From: a virus | Lineage: Duplodnaviria > Heunggongvirae > Uroviricota > Caudoviricetes | Virus record (IMG/VR): IMGVR_UViG_3300032046_000003 | Span: 1 to 64,000 of that record | Strand: one strand, 5' to 3' | DNA: 64,000 nt | Part shown: positions 16,143 through 31,096 of the stretch, one piece after another | How positions within the stretch are numbered: the first letter of the stretch is position 1 | Layout of the letters: each line of letters starts with the position of its first letter | Notes under the pieces: generated by a model | Seen by the model: only the letters and a program-made list of their open reading frames with translations | The model's database searches: none | Told to the model about the DNA's origin: nothing | Made by a program: the position numbers and the translations under genes

Positions 16143-16252
16143 ATGCCCCAATGGTGGAACGGGAGACACACTAGCCTTAGAAGCTAGCGCCTTAGCGGGC
16201 ATGCTAGTTCAAATCTAGCTTGGGGTATTGCTTCTAGGCTTGGAGACCTAAT

Positions 16253-22604: not shown

Positions 22605-22643
22605 TGTAAATCAGTGTATAGAAAAGATAAAGGAGGAAATGTT

Positions 22644-24749
22644 ATGAGCGTTGGACTTGACGTGGGAACTATGTTTGTTTGTTCAGCTAGGAAGACTCAG
22701 GACGGCAGAGTCTCATACAGGAAAGACAGGGATATATTCGTAGAGCTGCCGGCAGATACATCAAATTCTAAACAATTCATGGACATGGCGGGGGCAAAAT
22801 TAGTTACGATAGACAACAAGAATTACGCAGTAGGAGAAGAAGCAGTCAACTTTAGCTCTTTCTTCGGTGAGGATTTTAAGAGACCCTTAAAGAACGGCAT
22901 GATCAACCCCTCAGAAGAAGACTTGGCTATTCAGATATTAGACAACATTATAAGGGGTGTTTTAGGCGCTCCTAAACAGCCTGGAGAATTATGCGTGTTC
23001 TCAGTACCAGCAGAGCCTATAGACGAAAAGAGGAATGTCGTGTATCACCAGAAGACGCTTGAGTATTTAATTAAAAAGCAGGGGTTCACAGCAAAGCCTA
23101 TTAACGAATCTCTAGCCATAGTATACTCGGAACTGGCCAAGAACCAGCTTACGGGATTTGGTATATCATGGGGAGCAGGTTTATGTTTAAGTGGAGATAC
23201 AAAAGTGCCTTTACTTAATGGTCAAATTAAGACAATGAGAGAATTATCTGAAGAATATAAAGATAAAGAGTTTTGGTTATACTCCTGTAAAGAAGACGGG
23301 CAAATTGTTCCAGGGTTAGCTTCTAATCCTCGTAAAGTAAAAGAATCAGAAGTTATTAGAATATGGCTTGATAACAATAAATATTTAGATTGCACTCCAG
23401 ACCATAAAATAATGATGCGCAATGGTGAGTATAGAGAGGCTCAGATGCTAAAAGAAAATGATTCTATAATGCCTTTATATAAAGAAGTTGCGTATAAAGA
23501 AAACAAATATAATAAGGGATATTTGAGAGTAAAAAACAACAAAACAAATAGATTTAATTTTGTTCATAGATTGGTTGCTAGTTTCTTCAATAAAATACCT
23601 AAAAATTATATAGTTCATCATAATGATTTTAATAAACTAAATAATGAACCTAATAATTTATATATTTGTTCTATTATAAAACATGGAAAACTTCACAATG
23701 CCGATCATGTGAGGGGTAGAACATGGGAACAAATACTCGGTAGCGAAGAAAGGTCTGAAGAAAGAAAATTGAAACTTTCAAAATCATTAAAGAAAACATA
23801 TAAAGAGCATCCAGAAATTATAAAGAATGCTGCTGAAAAGAGAACAATAAAAAGAGAAGAAAGAATTTGCTTGTGTAAATGCGGTGAAACATTTATTTGT
23901 AAAGAAAATTCAAAACAAAAATATATACACGGGCATGCTATAAGGTTAAGAGAATATAATGAGAATGCTTATAAAAAGGTGATAGCTACTAGAAGATTGA
24001 AAGATAATTATAAACAATCGGATATCACTAAAAATAAAATAAGCGAAAGTTTAAAAGGCAATATTCCCTGGAATAAGGGCTTAAATGGTAATAATTATTT
24101 ATCTCATTATAAAAATGGAATAAAAAACCAAAACTCTTTATATAATCACAAGATTACCAAGATAGAAAAATTAAATAATAAAATTGAAGTTTATGATTTA
24201 TCAGTAAAAGATTATCATAATTTTGCCATAGACGCTGGAATATTTGTGCATAATTGTAATATAAACTTAAGCTATAAAGGATTTCCAGTGTTTGCTTTCT
24301 CGGTTGCTCGCTCAGGAGACTGGATTGACGAGCAGGTCAAGCAAGCCACTGGCAAGCCCACATCAGAAATTGCCGTTATAAAAGAGAATGAGCTTGACTT
24401 GACTAAAGAAGGAGACAACAGAACATTAAGATATTTGAAGAATTATTATGAGGAGTTGGTAGATTATGTTCTTCGCAACATTGTTAGGAAATTTGAACAG
24501 ACTAAAAGGATTCCTCCTACTTTGGATGCCAAGATGAAGACCGCGGAGGCGATACCGATCGTGCTGGCGGGCGGGACATCTCTTCCGAAAGGGTTCCCCG
24601 AGATGTTCAGGGACAGGTTGGAGAAGATAAACTTCCCGTTCAAGATCAGCGAGATTATAATCGCAAAGGAGCCTCTCTTCACGGTCGCTAAAGGCTGCCT
24701 GATAAGCGCAGAAGCGGAAGAGGGTATAACAGAGGCCAACAAGGTTTAA
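22644..24749 (+). CDS. actin-fold ATPase (ParM/MreB/Alp-like) interrupted by an intein
   Basis: Phosphate-1 GLDVGTMFV, phosphate-2 ISWGAG|..|NINL split by intein, adenosine motif VLAGGTSLP; ATG 22644 after AAGGAGGAAATGTT. Confidence 0.7.
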   Translation: MSVGLDVGTMFVCSARKTQDGRVSYRKDRDIFVELPADTSNSKQFMDMAGAKLVTIDNKNYAVGEEAVNFSSFFGEDFKRPLKNGMINPSEEDLAIQILDNIIRGVLGAPKQPGELCVFSVPAEPIDEKRNVVYHQKTLEYLIKKQGFTAKPINESLAIVYSELAKNQLTGFGISWGAGLCLSGDTKVPLLNGQIKTMRELSEEYKDKEFWLYSCKEDGQIVPGLASNPRKVKESEVIRIWLDNNKYLDCTPDHKIMMRNGEYREAQMLKENDSIMPLYKEVAYKENKYNKGYLRVKNNKTNRFNFVHRLVASFFNKIPKNYIVHHNDFNKLNNEPNNLYICSIIKHGKLHNADHVRGRTWEQILGSEERSEERKLKLSKSLKKTYKEHPEIIKNAAEKRTIKREERICLCKCGETFICKENSKQKYIHGHAIRLREYNENAYKKVIATRRLKDNYKQSDITKNKISESLKGNIPWNKGLNGNNYLSHYKNGIKNQNSLYNHKITKIEKLNNKIEVYDLSVKDYHNFAIDAGIFVHNCNINLSYKGFPVFAFSVARSGDWIDEQVKQATGKPTSEIAVIKENELDLTKEGDNRTLRYLKNYYEELVDYVLRNIVRKFEQTKRIPPTLDAKMKTAEAIPIVLAGGTSLPKGFPEMFRDRLEKINFPFKISEIIIAKEPLFTVAKGCLISAEAEEGITEANKV
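23184..24254 (+). mobile_element. intein (357 aa) with HNH endonuclease and CxCxCG zinc motif
   Basis: Starts CLSGDTKV (block A), ends ..FVHN followed by extein Cys (HN/C junction); internal HHNDFNKLNNEPNNLYICSIIKHGKLH (HNH) and ICLCKCGETFICKENSKQKYIHGH. Confidence 0.7.
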
Positions 24750-25079: not shown

Positions 25080-25167
25080 ATATAAAGTATATACTTTGTG
25101 GTGTATAATAATAACGTTGTACAAAATCACAATTACGTGTTATAATATATATGAGGCAACAATTCAT

Positions 25168-25253
25168 CTGGGTGTGGGTCAACTTGGTAGATCACTCGGC
25201 TTGGGACCGAGAGCGTATACGCTTTAATGCAGGTTCAAATCCTGTCACCCAGA
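25168..25253 (+). tRNA. tRNA-Pro(TGG)-like carrying a 12-nt palindromic hairpin (AGCGTATACGCT) in the variable loop
   Basis: Hand-folded cloverleaf: 7-bp acceptor CTGGGTG/CACCCAG, D arm, anticodon loop CTTGGGA, T loop TTCAAAT; removing 25212-25223 restores a 5-nt V loop. Confidence 0.5.
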
Positions 25254-25264
25254 TAAATTAGTAA

Positions 25265-25343
25265 AAGTCGGCTTAGTGTAACGGTAGCATCCAGAATGCT
25301 CGCAAGAGCCAACTGGAGAGTGGTTCGATTCCACAGCCGAAAC
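25265..25343 (+). tRNA. tRNA-like sequence, aberrant fold (possible pseudo-tRNA)
   Basis: T arm GTGG-TTCGATT-CCAC and GCTCGCAAGAGC GNRA hairpin, but no clean acceptor/anticodon arms by hand. Confidence 0.3.
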
Positions 25344-25351
25344 GAATTTAT

Positions 25352-25423
25352 CGCAGGGTGGAGCAGTGGCAGCTCGCTGGGCTCATACCCCGGAGGTCGC
25401 GGGTCCGATTCCCGTCCCTGCTA
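25352..25423 (+). tRNA. tRNA-fMet-like (CAT), initiator features
   Basis: C1:T72 mismatch, three GC pairs in anticodon stem, loop CTCATAC, T loop TCCGATT. Confidence 0.7.
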
Positions 25424-25437
25424 TAAATTAAATATAC

Positions 25438-25505
25438 GGCAGAAGACGTAAGGTGGGATTCCTTACAGCGGCAATAGCTGCTTAGTTTAGTATAGAACGT
25501 CTGCC
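25438..25505 (+). other. structured intergenic RNA candidate (three-helix element)
   Basis: GGCAGA..TCTGCC outer stem enclosing GTAAGG-TGGGATT-CCTTAC and CAGC..GCTG hairpins. Confidence 0.3.
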
Positions 25506-25528
25506 ATTGAATTGAAAAGGAGATTGAA

Positions 25529-25603
25529 ATGAACTCGAACGATTGTTGTAGATTGACCTGGTGGCTGAATGGCCTAGGCGACGATCTGCAAAATCGTATA
25601 TGA
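25529..25603 (+). CDS. leader-peptide-like ORF MNSNDCCRLTWW.. (tandem Cys and Trp codons) preceding/overlapping tRNA-Cys
   Basis: SD AAAAGGAG 6 nt before ATG; TGT TGT at 25544-25549, 5 nt before tRNA-Cys 5' end. Confidence 0.5.
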   Translation: MNSNDCCRLTWWLNGLGDDLQNRI

Positions 25604-25626
25604 GAGTTCGATTCTCTTCCAGGTCT
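25555..25626 (+). tRNA. tRNA-Cys(GCA)
   Basis: Acceptor GACCTGG/CCAGGTC, anticodon stem ACGAT/ATCGT, loop CTGCAAA, T loop TTCGATT. Confidence 0.75.
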
Positions 25627-25639
25627 CAAAAAATAAATT

Positions 25640-25728
25640 AACTAGGTGTGAGGCCGACGGTAATGCGGCAGGGGTAGTTGAAGGCTACATAAGTGATGCT
25701 TCACATCAACCTTTTGTGACACCTAGTT
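25640..25728 (+). other. structured intergenic element bounded by perfect 10-bp inverted repeat AACTAGGTGT / ACACCTAGTT
   Basis: Exact IR read directly; internal GCCG..CGGC and TGATG..CATCA hairpins; not tRNA-like. Confidence 0.35.
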
Positions 25729-25750
25729 TAAAATAAGGAGTAATATAAAA

Positions 25751-25801
25751 ATGTTTTACAAGGGTTACACGACGACAACAACTACGGGGACCAGCAACTA
25801 A
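25751..25801 (+). CDS. leader-peptide-like ORF MFYKGYTTTTTTGTSN (six consecutive Thr codons) preceding tRNA-Thr
   Basis: SD AAGGAG upstream; ACG ACG ACA ACA ACT ACG at 25769-25786. Confidence 0.55.
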   Translation: MFYKGYTTTTTTGTSN

Positions 25802-25821
25802 GCTGGCGTAGTCGACTGCGT

Positions 25822-25902
25822 GCCGGTGTAGCTCAAAATAAAAGGCAGAGCAACGGTTTTGTAAACCGAAGGTTGGGGGTTCAAGTCCTCTCGCCGGCCC
25901 CA
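25822..25902 (+). tRNA. tRNA-Thr(TGT) with encoded CCA
   Basis: Acceptor GCCGGTG/CGCCGGC, anticodon loop TTTGTAA, T loop TTCAAGT, long D loop; CCA at 25900-25902. Confidence 0.6.
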
Positions 25903-25922
25903 AATTTAAAGGAGATTACAAA

Positions 25923-25979
25923 ATGAATTCGACGGATTATCATCATAGCACACTTGCCATCATGGTGAGCGTAGCTTAG
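25923..25979 (+). CDS. leader-peptide-like ORF MNSTDYHHSTLAIMVSVA (His-His) preceding/overlapping tRNA-His
   Basis: SD AAAGGAGATT; CAT CAT at 25941-25946; N-terminus and SD near-identical to the Cys leader. Confidence 0.5.
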   Translation: MNSTDYHHSTLAIMVSVA

Positions 25980-26036
25980 TGGTAAAGCGCCTGCCTGTGA
26001 AACAGGAGAGGTGAGTTCGATTCTCGCCGTTCACAT
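25964..26036 (+). tRNA. tRNA-His(GTG) with G-1
   Basis: Extra 5' G before GTGAGCG, anticodon loop CTGTGAA, T loop TTCGATT. Confidence 0.8.
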
Positions 26037-26041
26037 AAAAT

Positions 26042-26494
26042 ATGAATAAGAAAAAAGATATGGTAATTGTTTCTGGAATTGATGCTTTAAGCCCTTTACT
26101 TGAACAATATAATAAGCGGTTTAAAATTTATAGAGACAGATACTATAAGTTATCTAAGCAGAAAAAAGAAATGATTGATGTACATACAAGTGAAATTATA
26201 GGTATATATAGCCTTAAAAAAGAGTTTAAAAAAATTGGTTTTGTGGTTGAGGATATGAAAAAAACATTAGAGGATGACACTCTAAAACATATTCCTAAAC
26301 TTCGTAAATCTTTAATGAAAGATTTTAGCAAAGATATAATATTTAAGTTAAAACTCGACGAATTAGATAATTGTTTCGGGAAATCTAAAGTAATTTTAAC
26401 ATCGACATTTGAAACATATATTAGTGATGAAGCAGTAAAAAAAGATTTTATTTTAGTGGTGATATTAAAATTAACTGAATGGGTGAAAAAATAA
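26042..26494 (+). CDS. hypothetical protein embedded in tRNA array
   Basis: 150-aa ORF. Confidence 0.45.
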   Translation: MNKKKDMVIVSGIDALSPLLEQYNKRFKIYRDRYYKLSKQKKEMIDVHTSEIIGIYSLKKEFKKIGFVVEDMKKTLEDDTLKHIPKLRKSLMKDFSKDIIFKLKLDELDNCFGKSKVILTSTFETYISDEAVKKDFILVVILKLTEWVKK

Positions 26495-26508
26495 AGGAGA
26501 GTAGTAAA

Positions 26509-26622
26509 ATGAGTATCGAACCATATTATACTGAGGGTAGTTGGCAGAGTGGTCAATTGCAGCTGCCTGTAGAGCAGCCGGCTTTACGCCTTCAGAGGTT
26601 CGAATCCTTTACTACCCAATAA
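26509..26622 (+). CDS. leader-peptide-like ORF MSIEPYYTEGSW.. (Tyr-Tyr) reading into tRNA-Tyr
   Basis: SD AAAGGAGAG; TAT TAT at 26524-26529, 5 nt before tRNA-Tyr. Confidence 0.5.
   Translation: MSIEPYYTEGSWQSGQLQLPVEQPALRLQRFESFTTQ
26535..26618 (+). tRNA. tRNA-Tyr(GTA), class II (long variable arm)
   Basis: Acceptor GGGTAGT/ACTACCC, anticodon stem GCTGC/GCAGC loop CTGTAGA, T loop TTCGAAT. Confidence 0.8.
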
Positions 26623-26634
26623 ACATAGGAGAAC

Positions 26635-26730
26635 ATGATAATGGACACAGACGATAATAATCGAATTAGTAGCAACTCATTCCTGAGTAGAACAATGGTA
26701 GTTCAATGCACTGTTAATGCATCTATGTAG
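26635..26730 (+). CDS. leader-peptide-like ORF MIMDTDDNNRISS.. (Asp x3, Asn x2) preceding tRNA-Asn and tRNA-Asp
   Basis: SD TAGGAGAAC; GAC ACA GAC GAT AAT AAT at 26644-26661. Confidence 0.5.
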   Translation: MIMDTDDNNRISSNSFLSRTMVVQCTVNASM

Positions 26731-26751
26731 GTTCAATTCCTGCCTCAGGAG
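26681..26751 (+). tRNA. tRNA-Asn(GTT)
   Basis: Acceptor TCCTGAG/CTCAGGA, anticodon stem ATGCA/TGCAT loop CTGTTAA, T loop TTCAATT. Confidence 0.8.
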
Positions 26752-26764
26752 TTGGTCGTTACCT

Positions 26765-26836
26765 GGGGTCATGGTATAACGGTTATTACGACTGATTGTC
26801 GATCAGTAAATCGGAGTTCAATTCTCCGTGGCCCCG
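26765..26836 (+). tRNA. tRNA-Asp(GTC)
   Basis: Acceptor GGGGTCA/TGGCCCC, anticodon stem ACTGA/TCAGT loop TTGTCGA, T loop TTCAATT. Confidence 0.8.
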
Positions 26837-26908
26837 TTAAAGCGTTGTTTTAATCTAGTTGATAGGGTAAAAAATTAAAGCTTATATAAGAGTATCAACA
26901 CAATACAT

Positions 26909-26980
26909 TCTCGAGTAGTTCAGCGGGAGAATAACTCCCCTACAAGGAGAAGGTCGCTGGTTCGATCCCAGCCTCGAGAA
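26909..26980 (+). tRNA. tRNA, anticodon TAC (Val?) with unusual C33
   Basis: Acceptor TCTCGAG/CTCGAGA, T loop TTCGATC; anticodon loop read as CCTACAA. Confidence 0.5.
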
Positions 26981-26985
26981 TTTAT

Positions 26986-27056
26986 GGGCCAATAGTTCAG
27001 TGGTAGAACACTCGGCTCATAACCGAAATAGCTTGGTCCGATTCCAGGTTGGCCCA
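26986..27056 (+). tRNA. tRNA(CAT), Ile2(LAU)-like (or elongator Met)
   Basis: Acceptor GGGCCAA/TTGGCCC with C4:G69, C5:G68 and anticodon-stem C29:G41 (TilS-type identity set); loop CTCATAA. Confidence 0.7.
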
Positions 27057-27080
27057 GTTAAATTAAAGGAGATGGTAAAA

Positions 27081-27152
27081 ATGATAGACATAGGAAACAT
27101 AAATATATATAACATTATTGCCGTATCCTGGTCGAGCTCAAGTAGTAATTAA
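27081..27152 (+). CDS. leader-peptide-like ORF MIDIGNINIYNIIAVSWSSSSSN (Ile x7 incl. 4 ATA, Ser x5, Trp) between tRNA-CAT and tRNA-Trp
   Basis: SD AAAGGAGATGG; own translation. Confidence 0.4.
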   Translation: MIDIGNINIYNIIAVSWSSSSSN

Positions 27153-27160
27153 TTACTTTT

Positions 27161-27231
27161 GGGTTCGTAGTTTAATGGAAAAATCATCGTCTCCAAAACG
27201 ATAGTTGTAGGTTCGATTCCTACCGAGCCCG
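27161..27231 (+). tRNA. tRNA-Trp(CCA)
   Basis: Acceptor GGGTTCG/CGAGCCC, anticodon loop CTCCAAA, T arm GTAGG-TTCGATT-CCTAC. Confidence 0.8.
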
Positions 27232-27245
27232 TAATATTTGGAGAG

Positions 27246-27848
27246 ATGGCAGAATGGCTATTGCGCTAACTAAGGAGTAATATGGCTAAAAAGGGTTGCA
27301 TTCCCTGGAATAAAAATTTAACCAAAGAAACAGACGAGAGAGTTAAGAAAAACGGAGAAAATGTTAGTAAAGCAATGACTGGTAGAAAATGGAAACCAAA
27401 AACTTCAGAATCGGCTTTATTACGAATTGAAAGAATTAAAAACGCTGCTAAGAAATATGGAAGAATGGGCGGATATAGAGAAAGAAGTGGTAGGGGTAAA
27501 CAAGGCAGATATAAAGGATATTGGTGTCAAAGTAGTTGGGAATTAGCTTATGTTATTTATAATTTAGAACATGCAATAAAATTCGAAAGGAATAAAGAAG
27601 GGTTTGAATATATTTTTGAAGGCAAAAAACATCTTTATTTCCCAGATTATATAGAAAATAGTTTTTACGTAGAGATTAAAGGTTATTTAACTAAACAAAT
27701 GCAAGTAAAAATAGCTAGTTTTAATAAACCATTAAGAGTTTTGCGAGAGGAAGATATACGGTCTATTTTAAATTATGTGACTCAAAAATATGGTAATGAT
27801 TTTATAAGACTATATGAGCCGTAGGTTCGAATCCTTCTCTCTCCGCCA
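27246..27848 (+). tRNA. class-II (Ser-like) tRNA gene interrupted by a 0.56-kb insertion carrying a homing-endonuclease ORF; 5' part 27246-c.27283, 3' part c.27806-27848 (GCCA end)
   Basis: 5' GGAGAGA-TG-GCAGAATGGCTATTGC and 3' GTAGG-TTCGAAT-CCTTC-TCTCTCC-G-CCA; acceptor halves perfectly complementary; closely resembles neighbouring tRNA-Ser(GCT). Confidence 0.45.
27282..27824 (+). CDS. homing endonuclease-like protein (NUMOD-like N-terminus + PD-(D/E)xK-like nuclease) inserted in tRNA gene
   Basis: GCIPWNKNL motif; FPDYIENSFYVEIKG (PD..ExK); SD AAGGAG. Confidence 0.6.
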   Translation: MAKKGCIPWNKNLTKETDERVKKNGENVSKAMTGRKWKPKTSESALLRIERIKNAAKKYGRMGGYRERSGRGKQGRYKGYWCQSSWELAYVIYNLEHAIKFERNKEGFEYIFEGKKHLYFPDYIENSFYVEIKGYLTKQMQVKIASFNKPLRVLREEDIRSILNYVTQKYGNDFIRLYEP

Positions 27849-27851
27849 ATT

Positions 27852-27936
27852 GGAGAGGTGGCCGAGCGGTTTAAGGCGCTTGTTTGCTAAACAAGTATAT
27901 CGAAAGGTATCATAGGTTCAAATCCTATTCTCTCCG
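27852..27936 (+). tRNA. tRNA-Ser(GCT), class II
   Basis: Acceptor GGAGAGG/TCTCTCC, D loop GCCGAGCGGTTTAAGGC, anticodon loop TTGCTAA, long V arm, T loop TTCAAAT. Confidence 0.8.
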
Positions 27937-27954
27937 TTTTTTTAAAGGAGTAAT

Positions 27955-28734
27955 ATGCCTGGTACTTCAAATGGTAATTATGGAAGAAGTATGTATTCCG
28001 ATCCAAAATGGAGAAGAAAAATAGCAGTAGGACATGTATATAAGAGAATAAATATTAAGAAAATATGTTCTAAATGCAATAATATATTTATAATTGAAAG
28101 AAAAATAGATAAAAATGGTAATGAAGTAGTTTATAATAAAGAAAAGAAATATTGTTTTAGGAAGTGTGCCAATTCTCACGTTCAAACAAAAGAAATAAAT
28201 GATAAAAGAGCAATAAAATTAAGAAAAAAACAGCATAAAATACACTATATAGAGTGTAAATTTTGTCATAAAATTTTTATAGGTAAACTTAAAAGTAGAT
28301 TTTGTAGCAGAAAATGTGTTAACTTAATGCGTAGAATTGAACTTGATGAATATAATAAATACAAAGCAAATTGTCAGTTTAAATTTTCTTTAAATGAATA
28401 TAAAAATAGATTTAATTTTTTATTAATTGAAAAGTTTGGTTGGTATAAGGCTAAAAATAGAGGTAATAATTTAAAAGGTATTTCAAGAGATCATATTATT
28501 TCTATAAATTATGGATTTGAAAATAATATTTCTCCTGAAATTATTTCTCATCCGGCTAATTGTCAACTATTAAGACATAACGAGAATATTTCTAAGGGTA
28601 AAAAATGTGGCTTAACACTAGATCAGCTATTGGACAAAATAGCAAAATGGGATTGTGGTGTAAATGGGAACACTTCTGACTTGCAATCAGAGGATCCGAG
28701 TTCGAGCCTCGGCTATTCCAATAATAGCGTATGA
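27955..28734 (+). CDS. HNH homing endonuclease with Cys-rich zinc fingers; ORF reads through tRNA-Ala at its 3' end
   Basis: CSKCNN..CFRKCANSH zinc motifs; GISRDHIISINYG..NCQLLRHNENISKG HNH; true stop may be earlier than track. Confidence 0.6.
   Translation: MPGTSNGNYGRSMYSDPKWRRKIAVGHVYKRINIKKICSKCNNIFIIERKIDKNGNEVVYNKEKKYCFRKCANSHVQTKEINDKRAIKLRKKQHKIHYIECKFCHKIFIGKLKSRFCSRKCVNLMRRIELDEYNKYKANCQFKFSLNEYKNRFNFLLIEKFGWYKAKNRGNNLKGISRDHIISINYGFENNISPEIISHPANCQLLRHNENISKGKKCGLTLDQLLDKIAKWDCGVNGNTSDLQSEDPSSSLGYSNNSV
28649..28720 (+). tRNA. tRNA-Ala(TGC) (G3:U70 present; one acceptor mismatch)
   Basis: Acceptor GGGATTG/CTATTCC, D stem GTGT/ACAC, anticodon stem TCTGA/TCAGA loop CTTGCAA, T arm CCGAG-TTCGAGC-CTCGG. 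Confidence 0.6.
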
Positions 28735-28754
28735 AATTAAAAAAGAGAATTAAA

Positions 28755-28883
28755 ATGAGAGTATGGGGATTGCCTTGCACAAGGAAAGTTGGTACTCAAG
28801 TCATAGAATCTAAGAAGAATAAACTTAATACGCGTAGAGCACTTAAGAGGAAACTTCAAAAAGAAATTGCGGGTATAGTATAA
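28755..28883 (+). CDS. small basic ORF (42 aa) ending inside tRNA-Gly
   Basis: Own translation MRVWGLPCTRKVGTQ..; weak SD. Confidence 0.25.
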   Translation: MRVWGLPCTRKVGTQVIESKKNKLNTRRALKRKLQKEIAGIV

Positions 28884-28940
28884 TTGGAAGTATACTTGCC
28901 TTCCAAGCAGGTGGAGCAGGTTCGAAACCTGTTACCCGCT
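28870..28940 (+). tRNA. tRNA-Gly(TCC)
   Basis: Acceptor GCGGGTA/TACCCGC, anticodon loop CTTCCAA, T loop TTCGAAA. Confidence 0.8.
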
Positions 28941-28946
28941 TAAAAT

Positions 28947-29017
28947 GCGGATGTAATTTAATGGTAGAATTCCTGGTTGCCAACTAGGATATACGGGTTC
29001 GAGTCCCGTCAACCGCT
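28947..29017 (+). tRNA. tRNA-Gly(GCC)
   Basis: Acceptor GCGGATG/CAACCGC (1 mismatch), anticodon loop TTGCCAA, T loop TTCGAGT. Confidence 0.7.
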
Positions 29018-29043
29018 CAAATAAAGTAGAAGGGGGTGTTAAA

Positions 29044-29136
29044 ATGGTAGACGCTGCCCCAGAAGATTACAAGTTGGCTGAGGAACAGATGAACGAAGAG
29101 TTATTAAATTTAGCAGAAGTAGAAATAATAGAATAA
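29044..29136 (+). CDS. leader-peptide-like ORF MVDAAPEDYKLAEEQMNEELLNLAEVEIIE (Glu x8)
   Basis: Own translation; no Glu tRNA seen downstream in window. Confidence 0.35.
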   Translation: MVDAAPEDYKLAEEQMNEELLNLAEVEIIE

Positions 29137-29145
29137 GGAGATAAA

Positions 29146-29202
29146 ATGTTCCAATTAGTTATAAAGCGAAAACGCAGGAGATGCGCTCGAAAGAGCGCAT
29201 AA
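29146..29202 (+). CDS. leader-peptide-like ORF MFQLVIKRKRRRCARKSA (Arg x5 incl AGG AGA, Lys x3) preceding tRNA-Arg(TCT) and tRNA-Lys(TTT)
   Basis: SD AAGGAGATAAA; 3' end folds as TGCGCTC-GAAA-GAGCGCA hairpin. Confidence 0.5.
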   Translation: MFQLVIKRKRRRCARKSA

Positions 29203-29210
29203 TGCGTCAC

Positions 29211-29283
29211 GCCCATATAGCTCAATTGGATAGAGTATCGGATTTCTAATCCGAAAATGTAAGTTCAAGTCTTACTATGGGCA
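29211..29283 (+). tRNA. tRNA-Arg(TCT)
   Basis: Acceptor GCCCATA/TATGGGC, anticodon loop TTTCTAA, T loop TTCAAGT. Confidence 0.8.
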
Positions 29284-29291
29284 TACTTTTT

Positions 29292-29362
29292 GTGCCTATA
29301 ACTTAATGGTAAAGTAGGTGGCTTTTAACCATCAAATGAAAGTTCGATTCTTTCTAGGCACA
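29292..29362 (+). tRNA. tRNA-Lys(TTT)
   Basis: Acceptor GTGCCTA/TAGGCAC, anticodon loop CTTTTAA, T loop TTCGATT. Confidence 0.8.
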
Positions 29363-29370
29363 TAAAAAAT

Positions 29371-29877
29371 ATGAAATTTAAATACATAGATCAATACATA
29401 TCTAAAAATAGAGAAGATAGAAGAAAACATTTAAATCTTAAAGAAAAGTGCATTGAAATAGGCGGAAATTCTACGAAATTTCAAGCTTTATTGGCTTACT
29501 TTCTTAAAACGACTATTCCTATTAACAAGAAAATTAACTTATGCCATGCATGTAATAACGGTAAATGTTCAAATGTTAAACATTTATATTGGGGCACCTC
29601 ACAAGACAATGTTCAAGATATAAAAGAAAGTGGTAAATGGAGCTCTTTATATTCAAGAACTGTTAAAAAATATGGTATAAATTATATGAAAGATATTTGT
29701 AGGAAAAACGGCCAAAATAATAAAGGCAAAAGATTATTGAAAAAAGATGAAATAAATAGAAGATTAAATTTAATAGAAAAAATTAATTTAAATGAATGGG
29801 GTTCTACAAATAAAGTAGCAGAAGTATTAAATATTAGTCACACTCAAGCCAGAAGATTTATTAATAAATATATATAA
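29371..29877 (+). CDS. HNH-type homing endonuclease with C-terminal HTH
   Basis: LCHACNNGKCSNVKHLYWGTSQDN; C-terminal WGSTNKVAEVLNISHTQARRF. Confidence 0.6.
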   Translation: MKFKYIDQYISKNREDRRKHLNLKEKCIEIGGNSTKFQALLAYFLKTTIPINKKINLCHACNNGKCSNVKHLYWGTSQDNVQDIKESGKWSSLYSRTVKKYGINYMKDICRKNGQNNKGKRLLKKDEINRRLNLIEKINLNEWGSTNKVAEVLNISHTQARRFINKYI

Positions 29878-29882
29878 ATCAG

Positions 29883-29911
29883 TTCAAATCTTCCAATATA
29901 TGCATTATAAT
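29883..29911 (+). promoter_or_regulatory. sigma70-like promoter TTCAAA-17-TATAAT; predicted start at or next to the ATG (leaderless)
   Basis: -10 ends 7 nt before ATG 29918. Confidence 0.5.
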
Positions 29912-29917
29912 ATATAT

Positions 29918-31096
29918 ATGGAAAACAAACTAAGTAAATTTATAATCGAAAGACATAAGAAGGATGGGACAGAAATTGCCCCAGTCAAGGTTAAGAAAGG
30001 CTATTGGATAGAGCTTCATAAAGAGAAGCAAGAAGGATTCATTTATTATCCTGGAACATTGGTACCCCACATACACTTCATGGAATGCAAAAAACACGAC
30101 AAGTATAACCAGCTCAAAGGCGGACCGATGCCTTGGACCAATCCCGAGACTATTGAGATAAACAAAGAGCTTTTGGCCACGCCTAATATATATGAAAAGA
30201 TGCTGAAAGCACAGAAAGATAACGACACTAAAACAATCGAATTCCTTTCAAAGCCTCTGGTGACCTGGGTATGCCCTCAAACATTAGGTAAAAAATCAAT
30301 ATATGCAGCTGATGTCACAGTGCATAATCGAAACGCCAAGAGTGAATATGTATTCGATCAAATAGATAGATTCGAAGAAGGCATAAAGAGGCTTGAAGGC
30401 ATATACAATAAAGAACGAGTAAAGACAACTCGAGGAATTGCCGCATTGGTCAACTTGCTATCAGCCAAATTCTGCTTCAGGGTCGGGAACAACACAGACA
30501 AAAAGACCTCCGGCATAGGAGTCACGACATTCAGGCCGCACAACATAAAGGTGGATAAGCGTAGCATAATACACTTTGTATTCAGAGGCAAGAAGAAAGT
30601 CAAGTGGCACAAGGTGCTGAGGCCTCATACAGACCTCGAGAATAAAATGTATGATGATTTAGTAGCCCTTAAGAACAGAGACAAAGAGTTCCTATTCACG
30701 AATGGTGAAAGAGTAGATAGTGGAGTAGCAAACGAACTGTTCAGAGAGGCAATGGATGTCAAAGAAGACGAAAGAGACTTCTTGTCATTCCACAGTTGGA
30801 GGCATTGGAACGCCTCTAAAGCCATCACTGAACAGGTCGCCAAATTGAGACTCAACAGGAAGCTTAATAAGATAATGAGAAGCAAACGTTCAGGCAACAA
30901 GGACCTCTCCAAGGCGCGATTAATAAATAAGAGTATAAATACATTATTCAAGAAGGTTGCAAAGATTCTGAATGATACGCCGGGAGTTGTTAAGTCGACC
31001 TACGGTGGAGCTCAACCGATCAGGAAATTATATGAGGACAATGGAATAAAATACGACGAGAAACGCAGATCGTTTGACAAGGAGATAATAAAATGA
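29918..31096 (+). CDS. type IB DNA topoisomerase (poxvirus/bacterial type)
   Basis: Blocks VHNRNAKSEY, ..FCFRVG, GVTTFRPHNIKV..FVFRGKKKV, EFLFTNG, HSWRHW, VKSTYGG align with vaccinia TopIB conserved blocks (recalled from memory). Confidence 0.65.
   Translation: MENKLSKFIIERHKKDGTEIAPVKVKKGYWIELHKEKQEGFIYYPGTLVPHIHFMECKKHDKYNQLKGGPMPWTNPETIEINKELLATPNIYEKMLKAQKDNDTKTIEFLSKPLVTWVCPQTLGKKSIYAADVTVHNRNAKSEYVFDQIDRFEEGIKRLEGIYNKERVKTTRGIAALVNLLSAKFCFRVGNNTDKKTSGIGVTTFRPHNIKVDKRSIIHFVFRGKKKVKWHKVLRPHTDLENKMYDDLVALKNRDKEFLFTNGERVDSGVANELFREAMDVKEDERDFLSFHSWRHWNASKAITEQVAKLRLNRKLNKIMRSKRSGNKDLSKARLINKSINTLFKKVAKILNDTPGVVKSTYGGAQPIRKLYEDNGIKYDEKRRSFDKEIIK

Follow-up and report, generated by a model that had tools for sequence, protein, structure and literature searches.

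A phage tRNA-Ser(UGA) gene very probably destroyed by a free-standing homing-endonuclease gene

The stretch of DNA analysed here (the window; 64,000 nt, positions 1 to 64,000 of the IMG/VR record IMGVR_UViG_3300032046_000003 from a virus of the Caudoviricetes) contains a tRNA array in which an open reading frame (ORF) resembling a homing-endonuclease gene (HEG) is embedded on the same strand, between two orphan pieces of a tRNA gene (Table 1). The 5' piece, GGAGAGA-TG-GCAGAATGGCTATTGC-G-CTA, corresponds to tRNA positions 1-29, i.e., the acceptor strand GGAGAGA, U8 and G9, the D-arm, G26, and the first 3 nt of the anticodon stem; it starts at 27240, 6 nt away from the start at 27246 given in a preliminary description of the locus. 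The 3' piece, GGTTCGAATCCTTC-TCTCTCC-G-CCA, corresponds to positions of about 52-76 plus CCA. It holds the last 2 nt of the T-stem 5' strand, the T-loop TTCGAAT, and the T-stem 3' strand CCTTC, followed by the acceptor strand TCTCTCC, the discriminator G, and an encoded CCA with its last base at 27848. This end and the limits of the ORF were described correctly before, as was the perfect complementarity of the acceptor strands GGAGAGA/TCTCTCC (7/7 pairs). Base 27824 is shared, being both the final base of the TAG stop codon and the first base of the 3' piece. The T-stem strand GTAGG of the preliminary description therefore has to be corrected: only GG is derived from the tRNA (the intact allele introduced below has GAGGG), and the apparent T-stem contains a T-T mismatch because GTA comes from the last codons and stop of the ORF. 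The inserted segment, 27269-27823, measures 555 nt, of which the ORF takes 543.

Table 1. Features at and around the split tRNA gene (window coordinates; L022, contig of the sister strain)
Feature	Position	Strand	Basis
tRNA-Trp(CCA), intact upstream neighbour in both alleles	27160..27232	+	ARAGORN; Rfam 64.1 bits; same in L022 207-279
Orphan 5' piece of tRNA-Ser(UGA)	27240..27268	+	Collinear with L022 287-315, the 5' end of the intact tRNA-Ser(UGA)
Insertion leader, 13 nt	27269..27281	+	Missing from L022
Homing-endonuclease-like ORF, 180 aa	27282..27824	+	ORF listing, homologues, alignments, profiles
Orphan 3' piece of tRNA-Ser(UGA)	27824..27848	+	L022 homology restarts at 27824 (L022 353)
tRNA-Ser(GCU), intact neighbour in both alleles	27851..27937	+	ARAGORN; Rfam 59.3 bits; same in L022 380-466

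Neither ARAGORN nor Rfam called a tRNA from the split pieces at 27240-27848. The locus thus consists of tRNA-derived sequence that forms no complete cloverleaf and is passed over by tRNA finders, which is what characterises a tRNA pseudogene. The neighbouring tRNA-Ser(GCU) is context and lies outside the insertion. Given the metagenomic source and the repetitive nature of tRNA arrays, an assembly artefact, or a chance complementarity of unrelated tRNA fragments, could be suspected. Such an origin is highly improbable, as the locus is the same in two independent assemblies (ENA ERZ27247683 and Logan SRR9617926) over 8.6-12.5 kb, and both fragments map to a single intact gene in another strain.

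This intact, HEG-less allele was seen in one 3.5-kb contig (L022) of a strain about 99% identical to the window phage, from a sister sample. Between the same tRNA-Trp and tRNA-Ser(GCU), L022 contains a 91-nt tRNA-Ser(tga) gene (287-377, ARAGORN; Rfam tRNA 55 bits) with a cloverleaf fold, and the two orphan pieces of the window are its two ends. They come from one gene rather than from unrelated remnants, and the earlier view that a homing-endonuclease insertion splits a tRNA gene of the Ser type is borne out in all three of its elements. The likeness to tRNA-Ser(GCU) that had been noted holds mainly in the acceptor stem, and the gene is in fact the UGA isoacceptor. Flanking identity is complete over 301 nt (window 26954-27254) and 1120 nt (27824-28943); the sole flank differences fall in the orphan D-loop at 27255-27259 (TGGCT versus ATGGC, 4 changed positions). 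Between these flanks the insertion replaces L022 316-352, i.e., 37 nt comprising anticodon-stem positions 30-31, the anticodon loop, the anticodon-stem 3' strand, the long variable arm, and most of the T-stem 5' strand. The alignment shows a minimal cassette, consisting of a Shine-Dalgarno leader and a 180-aa T7-endonuclease-I-like ORF in place of 37 nt of tRNA. Presence and absence of the gene at one site in two strains is the polymorphism expected of a free-standing HEG, and the HEG-bearing allele, lacking 37 nt of the intact one, has the disrupted site that goes with self-immunity. These two strains also differ in the presence of a second HEG (29371-29877), which shows that HEG turnover is ongoing here.

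Relatives of the window phage were obtained solely through a protein database. More distant ones (L023-L027) have no tRNA array at the corresponding position and are uninformative. Exact-pattern scans of IMG/VR for the 5' piece, a degenerate pattern for both alleles in JGI metagenome contigs, and a search of IMG/VR with the TopoIB anchor protein found no further copy or relative. In blastn searches of the region against phage genomes, tRNA-Ser(UGA) was seen immediately 5' of tRNA-Ser(GCU) in Bacillus phage FADO; the matches were otherwise generic tRNA matches only.

Two readings had been offered for the locus, namely a tRNA pseudogene created by HEG invasion and a novel ORF-containing tRNA intron. 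The former is upheld by the intact allele in the nearly identical strain and by the loss of 37 nt including the anticodon, and the latter is refuted, because neither an anticodon segment nor a ribozyme core is present. The anticodon-stem complement that could not be found before is truly absent: CTTGAAA or an anticodon segment occurs neither in the insert nor in the rest of the window. That the 0.56-kb insertion is an intron (group I, bulge-helix-bulge, or a new kind) whose splicing yields a functional tRNA might be suggested by the complementary acceptor halves and the encoded CCA, and also by a relative, L028, in which 15 nt separate a homologue of the window ORF from a downstream tRNA-Ser(UGA) gene with an ORF-less group I intron in its anticodon loop, after U34. 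It is nevertheless next to impossible, since the whole anticodon loop is missing, the ORF fills nearly the entire insert, and no intron model matches. A narrow Rfam scan of 27225-27860 (636 nt, E up to 10) gave no intron or ribozyme family, in line with the earlier remark that there is no group I core. The same kind of narrow scan detected the group I intron of L028, the positive control (RF00028, 63 bits); the first, wide scans had missed this real intron, for which reason the window was rescanned on the 636 nt only. ARAGORN, allowing introns up to 700 nt at its default threshold, also called no complete tRNA at the split locus. The locus lacks the features of a group I intron, i.e., a ribozyme core (P3-P9) and two exons giving a complete tRNA, and those of archaeal bulge-helix-bulge or split tRNAs, as halves with a 37-nt deletion reconstitute no full cloverleaf. 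These comparisons show two remaining tRNA ends that are non-functional and from which RNA splicing could not rebuild a tRNA. All in all, it is very probable that a phage tRNA-Ser(UGA) gene was destroyed by a free-standing, intron-less HEG.

Two further lines of analysis were set aside. Brute-force splicing of all junction pairs followed by ARAGORN gave 525 weak 'tRNAs' with random anticodons, none of them Ser, and was discarded either way as non-discriminating. A 9-nt sequence, CTAAAAAGG, is shared by the ORF start and the intact tRNA's variable arm; it was rejected as a microhomology junction, as the window lacks the tRNA sequence required in front of it.

The encoded protein combines a WNK-type NUMOD3-like N-terminus with a T7-endonuclease-I-like PD-(D/E)xK nuclease domain, so that the NUMOD-like plus PD-(D/E)xK assignment made earlier is supported at the family level by alignments, the T7 endonuclease I profile, and Pfam matches in relatives. 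The profile of the family matches T7 endonuclease I (1m0d) with an E of 1.8e-5 over the catalytic PD...E-x-K segment (about 50 residues). Pfam Phage_endo_I (PF05367) was found in 14/24 relatives at E 0.01, and the window protein alone reaches an E of 0.068, which is under the Pfam cutoff; NUMOD3 (PF07460) was found in 6 of the 24 and gave no match for the window protein by itself. In PHROGs, the window protein matches endonuclease families. Its AF2 model (pLDDT 86) gave weak Foldseek matches in the PDB to restriction-endonuclease-like folds (E >= 0.012), and T7 endonuclease I was not recovered. The conserved motif PWNKGLTKETD appears as PWNKNLTKETD. The residues invariant across the family (E87, P121-D122, E131, and K133) are all kept, as befits a free-standing HEG, with the caveat that position 83 is Q in the window protein and D in about 92% of 119 family members. 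Moreover, the N-terminal zinc finger of most homologues is missing, and the ORF starts at the conserved AKKGCIPWN motif, which sits 40-60 residues inside the homologues. Judging from Q83 and the missing zinc finger, the window protein may be inactive. Its closest relative among 370 homologues is just 55% identical, so that no donor is apparent among them. Stop-codon recoding, considered in view of in-frame TAG in some relatives (Lak megaphage, L029), was rejected for the window, whose long ORFs are intact under the standard code.

A Shine-Dalgarno sequence (AAGGAG, 27272-27277) lies 5 nt ahead of the ATG, and the 13-mer spanning it, the spacer, and the start codon, AAGGAGTAATATG (27272-27284), matches the one before the next HEG ORF at 27945. 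No convincing promoter or terminator of its own was found for the ORF, which would presumably be expressed via the read-through transcript of the tRNA array and its own strong Shine-Dalgarno. This arrangement, together with the intact 7-bp acceptor pairing and the encoded CCA, might suggest that the tRNA remnants are kept for a function, e.g., as RNase P/RNase Z signals or as a tRNA-like clamp by which the endonuclease mRNA is freed from the tRNA-array transcript or stabilised. That is quite improbable: the remnants are leftovers of the insertion, identical to the intact allele outside the D-loop, and the D-loop change, the only one in the flanks, fits relaxed constraint. In addition, no structure sequestering the ribosome-binding site is predicted for the leader region, which is no more structured than shuffled sequence, and processing at the neighbouring intact tRNAs would free the mRNA anyway.

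Members of this family (T7-endonuclease-I-like, some with NUMOD3 and most with a zinc finger) are spread over dozens of phages, uncultured as well as cultured, with Kuttervirus PhaxI among them. In a survey of 64 non-redundant loci, 60 were situated in tRNA arrays, and half (32/64) had a tRNA 5' end within -25 to +12 nt of the ORF stop codon, tRNA-Ser accounting for 17 of these 32. The split-tRNA anatomy of the window recurs in L010, L039, L091, and L101, where the acceptor strand of an orphan 5' piece can pair with a 7-mer that lies downstream and has GCCA after it; other viral contigs contain an intact tRNA-Ser(UGA) whose ends are identical to the orphan ends of L101. The anticodon loop is where the orphan 5' half stops in several relatives. 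In many, a tRNA 5' part or a whole tRNA follows right after the HEG stop, rebuilding or replacing the split resident gene, and an orphan half remains upstream; this full architecture is present in L010, L039, L091, L101, L087, L114, and PhaxI. The tRNAs that overlap an HEG are unusual, with A8 in place of U8 and mini D-arms. The window copy differs from these relatives in lacking a late-promoter-like leader, the N-terminal zinc finger, and a rebuilt or replacement tRNA downstream, and is an ordinary outcome, a pseudogene, within a recurrent architecture. Limited literature searches gave no description of HEG-split tRNA-Ser genes or of this architecture. Tentatively, at somewhat less than even confidence, the window ORF may be regarded as a degenerate member of a widespread, apparently undescribed group of intron-less homing elements that are specialised on phage tRNA genes, above all tRNA-Ser, land in the anticodon stem or loop, and carry a compensating tRNA.

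Under the proposed mechanism, such elements would land in a resident tRNA gene, within its anticodon stem or loop, and leave the orphan 5' half upstream, sometimes with an orphan T-arm and acceptor piece downstream. A compensating duplicate of the 5' part, or a complete and presumably cleavage-resistant tRNA, would overlap or abut the stop codon of the element, making it a natural 'cleave and replace' drive. In the window lineage, the nuclease would cut HEG-less tRNA-Ser(UGA) alleles somewhere within the segment lost from the window allele, probably in the anticodon loop region, as this is where the orphan 5' half ends in several relatives. We infer that the recognition site lies within the deleted 37 nt; the window allele, having lost the target segment, would therefore be immune. 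During mixed infection, double-strand-break repair would copy the cassette into intact alleles, with the identical flanks as homology arms. The loss of the tRNA would be tolerated because the phage-borne tRNA-Ser(UGA) is presumably dispensable. The window may represent the outcome when the rescue part is missing, and the group I intron in the tRNA-Ser(UGA) of L028 could be an alternative protection of the same site.

The same end state could also have been reached in a different way, in that the window locus is a deletion derivative of a fuller cassette (an orphan 5' half reaching to about position 36, a late-promoter leader, a full-length zinc-finger HEG, and a rebuilt or replacement tRNA) and did not arise by one-step insertion of a minimal ORF. 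Two later deletions would then account for what is missing, one for the leader and N-terminus and the other, on the opposite side, for the replacement tRNA. The full architecture of the seven relatives named above and the start of the ORF exactly at AKKGCIPWN are consistent with such a history, and the 4 D-loop changes fit an older, diverged HEG-bearing allele moved by homing, or pseudogene decay equally well. It is rather unlikely, however, as it requires two extra deletions with tidy ends, with a perfect Shine-Dalgarno and ATG at the left end and, at the right end, a stop fused to the T-loop; the lineage of the window phage yielded no intermediate form, and flanks 100% identical to the HEG-less strain equally fit a recent one-step event.

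Several known systems share part of this arrangement. In Aeromonas phage Aeh1, the mobE insertion reportedly splits nrdA, and the NrdA pieces are said to be functional as separate polypeptides (attributed to Friedrich et al. 2007). The window resembles it in having a free-standing HEG inside a gene, with no intron or intein and two flanking gene pieces; in contrast to the functional pieces of nrdA, the middle of the window tRNA is lost and the gene is dead. 'Collaborative homing' has reportedly been proposed by Zeng, Bonocora and Shub (2009; cited in PMC3037559) for the free-standing F-CphI beside the intron-containing psbA. In gene arrangement, L028, not the window, matches this system, with its homologue beside an intron-bearing tRNA-Ser(UGA). 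HEG-containing group I introns occur in the anticodon loops of bacterial tRNAs; one of them, in a cyanobacterial tRNA-fMet, encodes the PD-(D/E)xK enzyme I-Ssp6803I. As in that intron, a PD-(D/E)xK-type HEG interrupts the window tRNA gene in or near the anticodon arm, but the ribozyme core and complete exons of such introns are both lacking. Integrative elements such as prophages and ICEs use tRNA genes as insertion sites and restore the interrupted gene by bringing along a copy of the displaced part, and their integrases duplicate the tRNA 3' part via site-specific recombination. Many relatives of the window cassette likewise carry a rebuilding or replacing tRNA part after the HEG stop, but it is the 5' part or the whole gene that is duplicated in this family, and movement would rely on break repair. 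Unlike integrative elements and many of its relatives, the window copy has no tRNA rescue. T7 endonuclease I (PDB 1m0d, 1fzr, 2pfj) is similar in the catalytic segment to which the family profile aligns; it is a structure-specific junction resolvase and, unlike the window family, has no NUMOD or zinc-finger DNA-binding parts.

A parallel in setting is found in phage T4, whose tRNA gene cluster harbours the free-standing homing endonuclease SegB (PMC2330249; Table 1 of PMC2988022, where Aeh1 mobE is also mentioned). Part of the site recognised by SegB is a motif conserved in tRNA genes, the T-psi-C stem-loop, and SegB shows presence/absence polymorphism among related phages and co-conversion of neighbouring tRNA genes (PMC2330249, PMC2988022). 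The window ORF, too, is an intron-less HEG in a phage tRNA array with presence/absence polymorphism; unlike SegB, which is a GIY-YIG enzyme located between tRNA genes, it is T7-endonuclease-I-like and lies inside a tRNA gene that it destroyed. Neither Pfam nor PHROGs gave a GIY-YIG match for the window protein. By analogy, the window ORF probably works like SegB and is not a member of the GIY-YIG Seg endonucleases.

These results indicate that the window very likely holds no new class of tRNA intron, and that what it holds is a phage tRNA gene that a selfish nuclease gene has killed, captured as a polymorphism between two strains that occur together. In annotations, no functional tRNA-Ser(UGA) should be assigned to this phage, and the two ends of the tRNA should be labelled as pseudogene. 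The wider pattern is worth more, as one nuclease family is tied to tRNA 5' ends and repeatedly leaves orphan tRNA halves. If its members do cut the anticodon arm and bring their own replacement, this would help explain the rapid turnover, the duplication, and the debris in phage tRNA arrays; it would also provide a natural example of a cleave-and-rescue drive, and nucleases with tRNA-gene specificity would be on offer. Lastly, the situation in L028, where a tRNA-Ser(UGA) with a group I intron has a free-standing homologue beside it, bears on the origin of mobile introns.

The tRNA-Ser(UGA) gene of the window phage exists in two natural allelic states, one intact and without an ORF, and one in which an ORF replaces the central 37 nt. 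Close relatives of the locus were found in none of the phage, IMG/VR, or JGI collections, and the topoisomerase-IB-like gene 2 kb downstream was therefore used as an anchor for the search. A 98% identical homologue of this anchor lies on L022, a 3.5-kb contig of a ~99% identical strain from a sister sample. This contig is collinear with the window (L022 1-315 = window 26954-27268; L022 353-1548 = window 27824-29018) and carries, between tRNA-Trp and tRNA-Ser(GCU), an ordinary 91-nt tRNA-Ser(UGA), GGAGAGATGGCAGAAATGGCATTGCGCTAGTCTTGAAAACTAGTTGACAACTAAAAAGGTCTTGAGGGTTCGAATCCTTCTCTCTCCGCCA, backed by ARAGORN, Rfam (55 bits), and a cloverleaf minimum-free-energy fold. Base-by-base comparison gave 100% identity at window 26954-27254 and 27824-28943. 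Alignment with this uninterrupted homologue, a check proposed in the preliminary description, placed the insertion at L022 316-352 (GTCTTGAAAACTAGTTGACAACTAAAAAGGTCTTGAG, 37 nt), which is replaced in the window by 27269-27823 (555 nt); the flanks differ otherwise only at 27255-27259, in the D-loop of the 5' piece (TGGCT in the window and ATGGC in L022). Of the anticodon arm, the 37-nt loss has taken the loop, all of the 3' stem strand, and the final two bases of the 5' stem strand; the entire variable arm is also gone, as are three of the five bases that form the 5' side of the T-stem. This deletion explains why no anticodon-stem complement had been found initially. The 5' piece had been recognised correctly but with a start at 27246, 6 nt later than the actual 27240, and the apparent T-stem strand GTAGG is mismatched because only its final GG is tRNA sequence.

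Features of the split locus and orphan tRNA halves at related nuclease loci (L handles and PhaxI; a slash marks the end of the tRNA half)
Feature	Position	Sequence or remark
5' tRNA piece, window	27240-27268	GGAGAGA-TG-GCAGAATGGCTATTGC-G-CTA
Between 5' tRNA piece and ORF ATG		ACTAAGGAGTAAT
Homing endonuclease gene (HEG) ORF	27282-27824	ATG start, 180 aa, TAG stop
3' tRNA piece, window	ends 27848	GTTCGAATCCTTC-TCTCTCC-G-CCA, directly joined to ORF TAG
Intact tRNA-Ser(GCU)	27851-27937	three bases past 3' piece
Orphan 5' half, L010	2808-2846	...GGCACTAGTCTTGA/TTTATAG
Orphan 5' half, L087		...CGCACTGTCTTGA/TTTGCATAAATA
Orphan 5' half, L097		...GGCTCTAGTCTTGA/TTTTCT
Orphan 5' half, L114		...GGCAGCGTCTTGA/TGTATTCGCATAAATA
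Orphan halves, L039 (sequence: 5' half, Ser(CGA))	1021-1059 and ~1826-1853	...CTGCATTCGA/TTATTTTGTATAAATA
Orphan halves, L101	1023-1048 and ~1790-1819	
Orphan half, L042		Phe
Orphan half, L038		Ile
Orphan half, PhaxI (L117)	625-653	GGCCCCGTAGCTCAGTGGTTAGAGCAGAC/

The acceptor strands of the two window pieces are 7/7 paired, and neither ARAGORN nor Rfam called a tRNA across or within 27240-27848. An assembly accident as the origin of the locus was ruled out, because a 178-kb ENA contig and a 31-kb Logan contig, assembled independently, both contain the same sequence without one difference over 8.6-12.5 kb. The G+C content is 30% in the insert, 35% in the window, and 40% in the neighbouring topoisomerase gene.

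The locus belongs to a one-strand tRNA array of at least 18 genes at 25167-29363, with one more at 16144; ARAGORN called 17 tRNA genes in the window and Rfam one more, at 25822-25899 (52.4 bits, long D-loop). Small AT-rich ORFs are scattered among the array tRNAs. The tRNA at 25167-25254 (Rfam tRNA, 54.6 bits) has a proline anticodon (UGG), yet a 14-nt long variable arm, i.e., the type-II shape normally confined to Leu, Ser, Tyr, and Sec. At 26908-26981, ARAGORN reported tRNA-Cys(ACA), the loop of which (CCUACAA) is equally readable as Val(UAC) with C33, and is unusual under either reading. Between tRNA(UGG) and tRNA-Met, a tRNA-like stretch (25268-25340) with T-loop GGTTCGATTCC and complementary ends (TCGGCT/AGCCGA), uncalled by both ARAGORN and Rfam, may be another tRNA remnant. 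Elsewhere, an actin-like gene (Pfam Volactin, 22614-24749) is split by an intein with HNH/NUMOD3 parts; groundwater relatives (L024-L027) carry an uninterrupted 336-aa actin-like gene adjoining the TopoIB gene, with no tRNA array between.

The preliminary description had offered two readings of the split gene, namely, a pseudogene created by HEG invasion or a novel ORF-containing tRNA intron. ARAGORN prediction with introns up to 700 nt yielded nothing at the normal threshold, and a brute-force trial of all junction pairs gave weak calls only, with arbitrary anticodons. The insert does not contain the motif CTTGAAA, and a 23-mer taken from the deleted segment matches nowhere in the window, even with up to 3 mismatches allowed; any conceivable splice would leave an RNA without an anticodon arm. 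Since the genuine group I intron of the related locus L028 escaped a wide Rfam scan and was detected by a narrow one, the window was rescanned on 27225-27860 only, under permissive settings, without any match to an intron or ribozyme family. Of the 555 inserted bases, 543 are ORF. The lost anticodon arm, the negative scans, and the ORF-filled insert refute the intron, and together with the intact L022 allele, in which the replaced 37 nt are still present, they establish with high confidence that the gene is a pseudogene created through HEG invasion.

The nuclease encoded by the ORF belongs to a family tied to phage tRNA genes. Pfam, applied to the window protein alone, gave sub-threshold matches only (Phage_endo_I, E 0.068), and PHROGs endonuclease families match it at E 1.4e-7; more than 370 homologues were found at E <= 1e-10, the best non-self one being 55% identical. 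Among 24 sampled relatives, Pfam detected Phage_endo_I in 14, NUMOD3 in six, and various C2H2/C2HC zinc fingers in a few. The family profile matches T7 endonuclease I (1m0d, E 1.8e-5) over the catalytic Y-x-PD-F ... V-E-x-K-G segment, and the residues invariant in family alignments (E87, P121-D122, E131, and K133) are kept in the window protein. Its AlphaFold model (pLDDT 86) gave weak Foldseek matches, all to restriction-endonuclease-like nucleases (Bax1, PvuRts1I, Exo5, BglII/BstYI). The reading frame is intact and preceded by a strong Shine-Dalgarno sequence. However, the ORF starts right at the conserved AKKGCIPWN motif, so that the N-terminal zinc-finger part that most relatives have (40-100 residues) is missing, and in the motif C-D-S-S-W-E-L the protein has Q where 110 of 119 relatives have D; for these two reasons, the nuclease may be weakened or inactive. 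The 13-nt translation-initiation sequence AAGGAGTAATATG (Shine-Dalgarno, spacer, start codon) is identical at 27272-27284 and at 27945-27957, where it precedes a neighbouring HNH ORF, and a one-mismatch copy (ATA for ATG) lies in another tRNA-array spacer (25735-25747). About 0.2 matches are expected by chance; because AAGGAG-type sites are common in this phage, the sequence common to the two HEG ORFs is regarded as a curiosity only. In-frame TAG codons at conserved positions in the homologues of L004 (Prevotella phage Lak-B5, 2432-2857) and L029 (336-878) fit TAG reassignment in those phages; the window phage gave no sign of recoding.

The genomic contexts of family members that were inspected were all phage tRNA arrays. 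At 60 of 64 non-redundant nuclease loci, tRNA genes lie within about 1.2 kb, and at 32 of the 64 a same-strand tRNA starts at -25 to +12 nt from the nuclease stop codon. Seventeen of these 32 are tRNA-Ser (11 UGA, 5 GGA, 1 GCU), and the others are Phe, Leu, Ile, Gln, Asn, Glu, and Pro; in the RefSeq Kuttervirus PhaxI, the 'endonuclease' CDS overlaps tRNA-Met by 10 nt. At many loci, the nuclease gene is closely preceded by an orphan tRNA 5' half that breaks off within the anticodon stem or loop, after which an AT-rich leader follows. The leader contains (T/G/C)ATAAATA in 25 of 66 loci, a sequence that resembles the T4 late-promoter consensus; in 13 loci, a TCTTGAT or ACTTGAT heptamer occurs at most 140 nt ahead of the start codon. 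In L010, L039, L091, and L101, the upstream orphan has a 7-nt acceptor strand whose exact complement lies downstream of the cassette, as a 7-mer followed by GCCA; a resident tRNA has thus been split there, and its two ends flank the cassette just as in the window. Both orphan ends of L101, 26 nt and 28 nt long, match without difference the ends of an intact tRNA-Ser(UGA) in three other viral contigs (L122, L123, L125), which makes L101 a second, independent case of a tRNA gene with an intact and a split form.

Unlike the window, these four loci carry a tRNA between the nuclease stop codon and the 3' orphan. In L039, L101, and L091 it is a full additional tRNA-Ser-like gene that encodes its own CCA. 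In L010 its 5' part overlaps the nuclease stop codon and its 3' acceptor strand pairs better with the upstream orphan than with its own 5' strand, which makes it a chimeric, rebuilt gene. Some of the predicted HEG-overlapping tRNAs are atypical and low-scoring (L010, 31 bits; L017, 46 bits). In L028 (Logan ERR7626283 contig), 15 nt separate the homologue from a downstream tRNA-Ser(UGA) carrying an ORF-less group I intron after U34 (2582-2790; RF00028, 63 bits, E 6e-16); group I introns are not otherwise known to occur in tRNA-Ser.

Breakpoints lie at about positions 35-36 in several relatives and at 26-29 in the window, L101, and PhaxI; the intron of L028 interrupts its tRNA at 34/35. On these grounds, the nuclease would recognise and cut HEG-less tRNA genes in the anticodon-arm region. 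Repair of the broken allele from a HEG-bearing genome would copy the cassette, with the identical flanks in the window phage as probable homology arms, and the HEG-bearing allele would be immune because its site is interrupted or deleted. The family would normally soften the damage through a rebuilt or spare tRNA. The window copy is without one, so that the phage has lost tRNA-Ser(UGA), a loss that would be tolerable because the host supplies this tRNA. The window form may have arisen in one step, when a minimal RBS-plus-ORF unit was inserted illegitimately, or may be what two deletions left of a fuller cassette; the closest potential donor of the ORF has 55% identity. A second HEG also differs between the strains: an HNH ORF (168 aa, window 29371-29877) is absent from L022, the tRNA beside it is Arg(TCT) in the window and Arg(ACG) in L022, and its flanks (28944-30080) are diverged (about 77-95% identity versus 99-100% elsewhere), which looks like a co-conversion tract. 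This second presence/absence difference indicates that HEG traffic in the array is ongoing.

T4 SegB is a free-standing HEG in a tRNA cluster; the conserved T-loop motif forms part of its 27-bp site, and its activity drives inheritance of the tRNA genes around it (PMC2330249; PMC2988022). It is the closest functional analogue; however, SegB is GIY-YIG and intergenic, and the window ORF is therefore not a member, although it would work in a SegB-like manner. Aeh1 mobE in nrdA is reportedly likewise a HEG inside a (protein) gene without an intron, but both nrdA pieces are said to stay functional, which those of the window do not share. I-Ssp6803I, a PD-(D/E)xK enzyme of a HEG-bearing group I intron in a tRNA anticodon loop, has the same target type, whereas its splicing vehicle is absent from the window. 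L028 has a parallel in F-CphI, which lies beside the psbA intron. The rebuilt tRNA of relatives resembles integrase action at tRNA attachment sites, although it concerns the 5' side and comes about by another route. A limited literature search, which is no proof of novelty, returned no description of HEG-split tRNA-Ser genes, of this cassette architecture, or of the family-wide variant of intron-less homing, a pattern of nuclease genes set against the 5' ends of tRNAs, with orphan halves that break off in the anticodon arm and with tRNAs that are rebuilt or spare. Taken alone, the window locus is a HEG-made tRNA pseudogene, a mundane outcome; the wider interest lies in the family-wide pattern.
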